A stretch of DNA of 64,000 nucleotides from Bacteroidaceae bacterium (GCA_045657945.1 JAZOUB010000041.1:43987-107986), one strand, 5' to 3'. Shown: positions 33,258 to 33,833, counted from the stretch's first letter. Notes: generated by a model from the sequence alone, not told the origin. Numbers and translations are program-made.

Positions 33258-33407
33258 AAAGCTCGCCGATAGGTCAATTTGTGGATTAGTTCCAGAGGTT
33301 ATCCCATTGGCTCGCTTTTTTATCAGCGACCCGCGGGGCGCAACCTGTGTCTGCGCTGCCCGCGACCATTCGCTAAAAAGCTCGCCGATAGGTCAATTTG
33401 TGGATTA
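33258..33407. repeat. 31-nt perfect direct repeat (33258-33288 and 33377-33407)
   Basis: AAAGCTCGCCGATAGGTCAATTTGTGGATTA occurs twice, 119 nt apart. On the minus strand each copy starts with a TAA stop that follows a W(D/G)NLW coding remnant. Confidence 0.8.
33286..33369 (-). pseudogene. Possible decayed or truncated copy of the W(G/D)N(L/I)W-tail peptide gene (27 codons)
   Basis: MVAGSADTGCAPRVADKKASQWDNLWN*. Only the C-terminal WDNLWN resembles the intact copies. Confidence 0.3.
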
Positions 33408-33616
33408 CTGCCACAAATTGCCCCATTGTCAATGCGTGCCTCAACGAGACCCGCACGGCGTGACCGAGATGTCCACGCTACGTGCGACCAACCTCTGCAC
33501 GCATCAAAGGAGCCACCTTGTGTCTCCACTTCGCTCGTGGGGAGCCTAATTAAAGTTGACAAAGCCGCCTTTTCGCATCCCGCGCGGCATGACCAATGTC
33601 CATGCTACGCGCGACT
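33328..33616. repeat. Three homologous GC-rich imperfect hairpins (33328-33367, 33448-33489, 33578-33616)
   Basis: GACCCGCGGGGCGCAACCTGTGTCTGCGCTGCCCGCGACC; GACCCGCACGGCGTGACCGAGATGTCCACGCTACGTGCGACC; CATCCCGCGCGGCATGACCAATGTCCATGCTACGCGCGACT. Confidence 0.7.
33405..33428 (-). pseudogene. Possible relic of the same peptide gene (QWGNLWQ*, preceded by in-frame TGA)
   Basis: CAA TGG GGC AAT TTG TGG CAG TAA. Asn and Leu use codons synonymous to those of the intact copy (AAT TTG versus AAC CTC). Confidence 0.25.
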
Positions 33617-33637
33617 AACTGCTGTCGGCTTTATCGA

Positions 33638-33672
33638 TTAAAATAAATGAGGAGCCTCCTCATTTATTTTAA
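33638..33672 (-). terminator. Terminator hairpin overlapping the stop of small ORF 2
   Basis: TTAAAATAAATGAGGAG-C-CTCCTCATTTATTTTAA forms 17-nt perfect arms, A/T-rich at the base. Confidence 0.55.
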
Positions 33673-33833
33673 TTCCAGAGGTTACCCCATGTTCCGCGGC
33701 TGCCACCCGAGAGCTGGCCACCGTTTGAGGTATCTACTGTCTTTTCGTTATCCATTTTGAGTGAAGCTGCAAGCATTGCCTCCGCCTCAACATTTACCTC
33801 TACCATGAGAGGTGATACATAAGTCTTCTTCAT
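33669..33833 (-). CDS. Small W(G/D)N(L/I)W-tail peptide, copy 2 (54 aa)
   Basis: Hand-translated, below the track cutoff: MKKTYVSPLMVEVNVEAEAMLAASLKMDNEKTVDTSNGGQLSGGSRGTWGNLWN*. Paralog of 19428..19613 and 47040..47204. Confidence 0.5.
   Translation of the reverse strand: MKKTYVSPLMVEVNVEAEAMLAASLKMDNEKTVDTSNGGQLSGGSRGTWGNLWN

Follow-up and report, generated by a model that had tools for sequence, protein, structure and literature searches.

In Bacteroidaceae bacterium (GCA_045657945.1 JAZOUB010000041.1:43987-107986), an uncultured organism with a metagenome-assembled genome of 2.57 Mb, we studied a window of 64,000 nucleotides (nt) in which a short peptide gene on the minus strand is followed by two sequences resembling the end of the same gene. 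An earlier note on this DNA had taken these two remnants, A and B, for decayed tandem copies of the gene. Our reading, to which we give a probability of roughly 0.85, is that both duplicate the end of the gene (its last seven codons and stop) as spares, and that they bound palindromic units resembling repetitive extragenic palindromes (REPs) and are not dead peptide genes; the route by which they would have arisen, copying followed by recombination, we infer. Below, C denotes contigs of the window's own genome, G genomes and L loci compared. From the gene downstream, the locus contains the following features.

33669..33833, minus strand: intact gene of the WGNLW peptide family, 54 codons, copy 2 in the window (MKKTYVSPLMVEVNVEAEAMLAASLKMDNEKTVDTSNGGQLSGGSRGTWGNLWN; call of an open reading frame, ORF).
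33669-33689, minus strand: working tail of the intact peptide gene, TGGGGTAACCTCTGGAATTAA.
33640..33670, minus strand: terminator-like hairpin with perfect 18-nt arms, starting at the stop codon (inverted repeat 33637-33673, 100% complementary; predicted fold).
33555..33639, minus strand: REP-like palindromic unit of subfamily "type 3" (CGATAAAGCC...GGCTTTGTCAA) with a central GC-rich hairpin (inverted repeats, predicted fold, nhmmer).
33429..33554, minus strand: palindromic unit of "type 2" with two hairpins, its right end adjoining tail B (alignment A1).
33405..33428, minus strand: tail B, caaTGGGGCAATTTGTGGCAGTAA (QWGNLWQ*), stop at 33405-33407; remnant B of the earlier note.
33392..33404, minus strand: inverted tail copy TCCACAAATTGAC, predicted to pair with tail B with the stop codon in the loop (inverted repeat, predicted fold).
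33310..33391, minus strand: core of the "type 1" unit, with a GC-rich hairpin between CTATCGGCGAGC and AAAAGCGAGC.
33286..33309, minus strand: tail A, caaTGGGATAACCTCTGGAACTAA (QWDNLWN*), stop at 33286-33288; direct tail copy and right end of the type-1 unit.
33236..33285, minus strand: start of a third unit, consisting of a second inverted tail (33273-33285) and a left arm fused to a remnant of the right arm (GCAAAACAAGTCAG), the hairpin core being deleted.
33207..33235, minus strand: decayed last tail and junction to the conserved flank (..TCTTTGACTACACGC) before a sulfatase gene (alignment A1).

The intact ORF, the two tails reading ...QW(G/D)NLW(Q/N)* and their stops all lie where the earlier note had placed them, and the perfect 31-nt repeat that it saw behind both tails was confirmed. 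This 31-mer (TAATCCACAAATTGACCTATCGGCGAGCTTT) is present exactly twice in the whole genome (window 33258-33288 and 33377-33407), and the true direct repeat is longer, 52 nt with 87% identity (33258-33309 versus 33377-33428). The perfect repeat arises because the third unit, which follows remnant A and is internally deleted (33236-33272), starts with a second inverted tail and a left arm; truncated last units of a like kind are found at L118 and L135. GC-rich hairpins occupy the space between the tails, and a perfect 10-nt inverted repeat (CAATTTGTGG / CCACAAATTG) straddles the stop codon of remnant B. The type-3 unit has a match at C41:77542-77622 (nhmmer, E = 1e-17), and similar units occur elsewhere in the genome. 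A 27-codon ORF (33286..33369) ends in SQWDNLWN* and passes through the hairpin core; in orthologues the stretch that it spans has a 1-nt gap (G019) or a nested insertion of about 75 nt (G012). This ORF is evidently spurious and not a conserved coding frame.

Is there any trace of a second peptide gene? Each of 71 loci found by the peptide alone, and each of 20 earlier loci, has one family gene, and about 26 of them have one to three extra tails. A tblastn search with six diverse gene bodies, from which the tails had been removed, gave 95 loci; each has a single place homologous to the body, and a second was seen in none of them. At every locus, similarity to the gene breaks off some 24 nt upstream of the stop, with a common start point, c/gAATGGGG, and scattered gene-body homology with copy-specific decay boundaries was not found at any locus. 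The earlier note saw here a birth-and-death tandem array, in which two or three full peptide genes once existed and the distal ones decayed to their last codons. The tails are indeed true homologues of the gene's 3' end, differing mainly at synonymous sites, and the peptide family is multi-copy in the genome, both of which such an array would explain; it would not explain why 95 loci hold no second gene body or body fragment, why a sharp homology boundary is identical at every locus, why orthologous loci consist of one gene and zero to two units, or why unrelated genes show the same architecture. We therefore consider the tandem-array reading largely refuted, and its chance of being correct very small indeed.

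In alignment A1 we compared the stretch between a type IX secretion system (T9SS) gene of 586 amino acids and the sulfatase gene in the window and in three sister species (G010, G012, G019). In all three, the gene body continues directly into the tail at the position of remnant B, followed by a type-1 unit and then by the tail at the position of remnant A; tail B is thus the positional equivalent of the orthologues' working tail. Tail A is kept at the same position in all four orthologous loci with the type-1 unit. A stretch of 267 nt (33429-33695), between ...GCCGCGG and CAATGGGGCAATTTG, is confined to the window in this alignment and has no counterpart in the three orthologous loci. It contains the present working tail, the terminator hairpin, the type-3 unit and the type-2 unit. 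In another species (L046), a counterpart of this block with 90.5% identity lies between the second and third tails, and the module order differs. An empty site is seen in L140-L143 (metagenome contigs), whose peptide is 94% identical to that of the window gene and shares its codons GGA ACA TGG. Here one gene and one tail (TGGGGCAACCTTTGGGAGTAA) are followed by four bases and then by the conserved flank ACAACACGCATTTAC; the sulfatase gene lies 196 nt further. The number of units per orthologous locus is therefore 0 (L140-L143), 1 (G010, G012), 2 (G019) or 4 (the window, where the last unit has no hairpin), and tails form both ends of every array difference between these loci. The syntenic comparison that the earlier note had proposed, for intact second and third copies, yielded one gene in each of G010, G012, G019 and L140-L143. 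That note had tied its reading to full-length copies at the homologous positions of related genomes and to a conserved W-N-L-W match; the former are absent, whereas the latter is conserved, so that half of what it expected holds. We read the locus as an array of REP-like repeat elements, not as a graveyard of duplicated genes.

The unit has a constant layout. On the gene strand, the working tail and stop are followed by an inverted part-copy of the tail, a conserved core of about 80 nt (a GC-rich hairpin, ending in ..CAA(T)) and a direct copy of the tail with its stop; the whole measures roughly 85-120 nt. Within the window's own genome, this tail-hairpin-tail layout is found at four other loci (C5, C12, C23, C53), each with an intact gene. 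The order there is gene end TGGGGCAATTTGTGGnnnTAA, tCCACAAATTGACCTATCGG..., a GC-rich hairpin (ggtcgcggg...cccgcggg), ...aaaagcgagCCAA, a second tail TGGGGTAACCTYTGGAAYTAA and usually a terminator hairpin. C53 has three units in tandem, and C9 is an empty-site paralogue of C12, sharing its upstream region and terminator without the unit. A minimal form without a core was also observed at C15 (approximately 2100-2165, minus strand), where the gene tail TGGGGTAATTTGTGGTAA, an inverted copy CCACAGATTTACCTA and a second tail TGGGGTAACCTTTGTGAATTAA precede a terminator. In the window's genome the type-1 unit lies solely beside peptide genes. Among relatives, the type-1 unit with tails is present in 14 of the 25 genus genomes sampled, a count that includes the own genome, and is absent from all 16 genomes of other families; the 85-nt core alone is present in 24 of 90 genus genomes. 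A hidden Markov model of the core (nhmmer) finds about 49 copies in the own genome, with clusters at C5, C53, C1 and C39. Several further arrays of this genome have units interspersed with copies of the local flank. In two examples, C1:59543-59852 and C39:64684-64891, tandem REP-like cores take turns with copies, 30-45 nt long, of the upstream flank at that place; at C1 no complete ORF end of at least 60 codons lies directly upstream of the first unit. These two arrays suggest that flank copying is a general property of the core family.

The cores are not restricted to peptide genes. They also occur right behind the stops of other genes, namely T9SS cargo genes and at least three more, each time flanked by copies of that host gene's own last 12-29 nt. 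In 14 loci, T9SS cargo genes ending in ...NGKKTLVK* carry the core; at one of these cargo genes (L007), AATGGCAAAAAGACACTTCTAAAGTAA is followed by TTTTTTG, the core and AACTGGCAAAAAGACACATGTAAAGTAA. T9SS cargo gene ends with a core include L077, L093, L097, L104, L103, L118 and L116, as well as C33 of the own genome near position 1235 (minus-strand read). Behind an unrelated gene (L011/L012), 27 nt are duplicated and two units stand in tandem; L099 has the core and a duplicated tail, and at L010/L110 the duplication has decayed. Other core subfamilies (CGATAAC...GTCAA) act alike at L033 (AAGTTTTGGTGA, loop agtaa, TCACCAAAACTT), L041 (AAGTTCTCGTT, loop aaataa, AACGAGAACTT) and L072 (an exact 17-nt duplication), and the perfect complements are gene-specific (TCACCAAAACTT at L033 versus AACGAGAACTT at L041). 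The duplication measures 12-14 nt at L099, 17 nt at L072, 23-24 nt at peptide genes and 27-29 nt at T9SS genes and L011. Wherever the flanks were read, the CG... end of the core points toward the stop of the upstream gene and the ...CAA(T) end toward the spare tail. We had also considered a peptide-specific MITE (a transposable element of the miniature inverted-repeat class) whose inverted ends mimic the gene tail, and dropped it because T9SS genes and others, each with its own tail, are followed by the same core. In these genomes, the short ORFs and "pseudogene tails" that trail genes, such as the 27-codon ORF, are by-products of repeat units; they should be taken neither for genes nor for evidence of gene turnover.

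What constrains the codons of the tails? The working tail and its inverted copy are predicted to pair as a helix whose loop contains the stop codon, with energies of -17 to -24 kcal/mol in peptide genes and -8 to -15 kcal/mol in T9SS genes; the predicted fold of tail B with its inverted copy has -17.3 kcal/mol. Over 24 distinct loci, 90.5% of the cells of the helix are paired, and five pairs and 14 cells have changed on both sides; 500 column shuffles never came up to this. When the partner is slid by one to three columns, pairing falls to 30-50%. The variable helix positions are the synonymous sites of GGN, AAY/GAY and YTN. The codon difference that the earlier note reported is real and goes back to real coding tails: remnant B reads AAT TTG and the intact copy AAC CTC, as remnant A also does. 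That note had also taken it to argue for selection at the protein level and not as a nucleic-acid motif, and this part does not stand: AAT TTG is the variant that pairs with CCACAAATT in the inverted copy downstream, so the synonymous difference is no argument against a constraint at the nucleic-acid level. T9SS genes that carry a unit show co-variation between their stop codon and the codon four positions upstream, which keeps the inner stem; the variants are ACA CTT GTA AAG TGA, GTA CTT GTA AAG TAA and ATA TTT GTA AAA TAA, while unoccupied genes with ACA retain TAA. The locus is thus a clear case in which the choice among synonymous codons, and in the partner T9SS genes that of the stop codon as well, tracks a nucleic-acid pairing partner, and we caution that synonymous variation is no proof of selection on the protein only. 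As for the spare tails, 32 of about 45 in related loci still read W[GD][ND]LW and a stop, with differences mostly at third codon positions, and the tails at internal junctions of tandem arrays are often shortened or deleted.

These observations might also be explained by a selected RNA or single-stranded DNA module at the 3' end, in which the hairpins and the spare tail, an alternative pairing partner of the inverted copy, would be kept for their effect on the 3' ends of transcripts, on the stability of the mRNA or on how efficiently these genes terminate, and mobility would be secondary. The compensatory changes in the helix fit this, as do the fold of the region, which is much better than that of shuffled sequences (z = -6.2), the constant orientation of the unit relative to the upstream gene, and the co-variation of the T9SS stop codon (ACA..TGA, GTA..TAA, ATA..TAA), with empty ACA genes keeping TAA. 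E. coli REPs stabilise upstream mRNA and, near a stop codon, reduce translation, which counts in the same direction. However, the presence and copy number of the units vary among close relatives at one locus, the units bear nested insertions and internal deletions, and their host genes are unrelated. We regard such a module as rather unlikely to be the primary explanation; it is compatible with spare tails bounding REP-like units, as an added layer.

How could the tail copies have been produced? Our best guess is a template-switch copy-paste at hairpins followed by recombination between tails. A unit would be copied in beside the stop codon by a replicative process guided by microhomology. The nascent strand would snap back on the gene tail, giving the inverted copy, then switch into a donor unit, and finally return to the target at an upstream AAT or AA microhomology, so that the tail is copied again. 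Template switching within the palindrome would keep the arms of tail and inverted tail matched, the survivors being versions with an intact coding arm. Tail recombination would later grow, shrink and swap the modules of the array. If any spare tail can become the working one, most spare tails would be expected to stay codon-perfect. The ends of the units bear on this route. The duplicated tail starts at a host AAT (or AA), the core ends in ..CAAT, and the inverted copy ends at the same point. An AAT directly 5' of the tail is found in 20/24 occupied versus 14/64 unoccupied peptide genes (p = 2e-7) and in 14/14 versus 23/99 T9SS genes (p = 2e-8), both p-values being uncorrected for shared ancestry. 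A duplication that varies between 12 and 29 nt is unlike the fixed staggered cut of a transposase; together with the AAT and CAAT ends, it would fit replicative copy-paste with template switches. Later remodelling by tail recombination is better supported than the insertion route, because of the permuted module order, the series of 0, 1, 2 and 4 units and the state of the spare tails.

Several points weigh against this picture. The occupancy statistics ignore shared ancestry. The template-switch route is reconstructed from its end-products alone. Between the proximal tail and the distal one, peptide- and T9SS-type units show 2-5 differences; these insertions are therefore old and their original junctions blurred. 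Codon-perfect spare tails could reflect a function of the tail itself, and the covariation of the hairpin could reflect selection on RNA structure and not templated copying. Finally, all sequences are metagenome-assembled, mostly metagenome-assembled genomes (MAGs), in which repeats may be mis-assembled.

The array differences, all of which break at tails, raise the question of whether a moving element is needed at all. By pure recombination, unequal crossing-over and gene conversion among paralogous 3' regions would have used the tails as short portable homology. The permuted module order of the window and L046 would follow from this, and so would the mosaic paralogues C5, C9 and C12, which share bodies, upstream regions and terminators in differing combinations. 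Left unexplained is the origin of this architecture, with its gene-specific inverted copy, at L011/L012, L099 and L010/L110, where the tails of the genes do not resemble those of the peptide and T9SS families, and in several core subfamilies. Recombination on its own thus seems improbable to us; it is likely the second step and not the first.

A classical non-autonomous transposon is another way to obtain the unit ends. A MITE, or a REPIN (a REP-based element), would be moved by a dedicated enzyme, e.g., an HUH protein resembling the REP-associated tyrosine transposase (RAYT), cutting at ..AAT and ..CAAT and inserting 3' of AAT. The proximal tail and its inverted copy could then be read as the element's own left-end hairpin. 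In favour of this, the unit ends resemble inverted repeats, the unit invariably closes with ..CAA(T) on the right, and an AAT marks the left edge of the tail in occupied genes. The genome also holds a distant RAYT-like ORF of 339 amino acids (C40:6663-7679, locus L125), which combines a weak HUH/Y1 N-terminal domain with a C-terminal part of about 170 amino acids without a family match. It scores 44.5 bits (E = 1e-11) against NF047646 ("REP-associated tyrosine transposase"; cut-off 80), which is below the NCBIfam cut-off, and 23.3 bits against PF01797 (Y1_Tnp; cut-off 23). Homologues with 30-38% identity, low for members of one genus, are present in 9 of 90 genus genomes, and seven of these nine carry the unit (versus 24/90 overall); however, 17 of the 24 unit-bearing genomes have no RAYT-like gene. 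A search on both sides of the RAYT-like gene gave no matching REP hairpins. The outer arms of the units are specific to the host gene, not to the element, and the duplication has no fixed length (12-29 nt). We therefore think a dedicated transposase of this kind quite unlikely, and treat the RAYT-like gene as a lead only, weakly linked to the units.

The units share features with several known systems. Like REPs, bacterial interspersed mosaic elements (BIMEs) and REPINs, they are short, GC-rich imperfect palindromes, extragenic, clustered 3' of genes and arranged in arrays, with about 49 core copies. A GTAG or CGTC tetranucleotide tag at the foot of the palindrome defines two REP super-families (PMC3733652). 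Unlike these, our cores have neither tag, beginning with GGTC[AG]CG and ending with CG[CT]GGGT (as judged by reading the sequences), and the last codons of the host gene recur beside each unit, once directly and once inverted. No word beginning with "duplicat" occurs in the survey cited (PMC3733652), and we found no description of a layout of tail, inverted tail, core and tail in the literature on REP, REPIN, MITE, Bacteroidetes or Prevotella repeats.

In size, inverted ends, gene-adjacent position and lack of autonomy, the units resemble MITEs. MITEs derived from insertion sequences (ISs), e.g., the Correia elements of Neisseria, are non-autonomous, about 100-150 nt long and gene-adjacent, have inverted ends and can supply stops or terminators. 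The units differ from them in that their duplication is variable (12-29 nt) and not fixed at 2-9 nt, and in that their outer inverted arms follow the host gene instead of a family consensus. The units have their inner arms in common, while the outermost inverted arms differ by host gene (TCCACAAATTGAC, TTTTTTG, TCACCAAAACTT, AACGAGAACTT). No parent IS or larger element with the unit's ends was found in the window's genome.

The closest analogies appear to be mechanistic, namely quasi-palindrome template switching, tandem-inversion duplications (a-a'-a) and target-primed insertion. Quasi-palindrome template-switch mutations and a-a'-a duplications are known in E. coli and Salmonella, where they are sporadic. 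As judged from the sequence alone, the units resemble them in the direct-inverted-direct arrangement of a short segment around a hairpin and in several simultaneous "compensatory" changes copied from the other arm; here, by contrast, the arrangement is recurrent, family-wide and tied to a conserved core. Target-primed insertion of retroelements lacking long terminal repeats (non-LTR), and of short interspersed nuclear elements (SINEs), gives variable target duplications of 10-30 nt. The variable duplication of our units and the microhomology between the 3' end of the element and the start of the duplication (..CAAT / AAT..) are SINE-like. Unlike SINEs, the units have a bacterial host, no reverse transcriptase or RNA intermediate is implicated, and an inverted target copy is not a SINE feature. 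As with genomic islands and integron cassettes in the 3' ends of genes, the interrupted gene keeps a full 3' end and the displaced end stays downstream as a direct repeat; those systems have one fixed target copy and encode or need a site-specific recombinase, whereas here, where no search was aimed at a recombinase, one 80-nt core is flanked by the tails of many genes, with a spacer of 3 to 8 nt.

Three further candidates were tried and rejected. A core site of a tyrosine recombinase (arm-spacer-arm) was set aside since the tail and its inverted copy stand 3 to 8 nt apart, a spacer of no fixed length. A pair of template and variable repeats, as in diversity-generating retroelements, does not fit either: the differences between the two tails do not fall on adenines, and the repeat is short, at about 21 nt; nor was a reverse transcriptase noticed near the locus, though none was searched for. 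An integron attC site was discarded as well, the core-site motifs being absent and the T9SS-type units having other ends.

It is tempting to speculate that the units represent an undescribed form of bacterial repeat mobility, a target-primed or template-switch copy-paste beside stop codons that re-creates the gene's last codons, makes an inverted target hairpin over the stop and leaves the old end behind as a swappable spare. We offer this as a tentative possibility. If the insertion route is true, REP-like repeats would spread without breaking their target genes and would keep a stock of interchangeable gene ends, by a mechanism outside current descriptions of REPs, REPINs and MITEs.

The peptide itself belongs to a family that, in public data, comprises 961 protein clusters, all from uncultured Bacteroidaceae-like MAGs. 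At least 16 members are present in the window's genome, with an N-terminus of the form MKKxYxxP...LAAS and a C-terminus of the form RGxWGNLW. Three members with WGNLW or WDNIW lie in the window (19428-19613, minus strand; 33669-33833, minus strand; 47040-47204, plus strand). The peptide has no family match in Pfam or NCBIfam and no match in the literature. The exact window peptide has no match in public assemblies; close variants matched the empty-site loci L140-L143. An Rfam scan of 32900-34100 gave just two sub-threshold chance matches.

Two other palindromic elements were observed. The first is a small element (...CTCCCTCCC...GGGAGGG... type, approximately 45-95 nt) nested in the loops of REP-like hairpins; it is seen at L006 (G012:C32), L008, L009 and L004, and in the own genome at C9:8620-8705 and C9:12274-12354. 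The second is a GTAG-tagged palindrome pair (GTAGGGGCAGACCGATGTGTCTGCCCTAC and its partner) at window 33872-33944, upstream of the peptide gene and separating it from the T9SS gene. This pair recurs ahead of the paralogues at C5 and C15 and lies outside the REP-like units.

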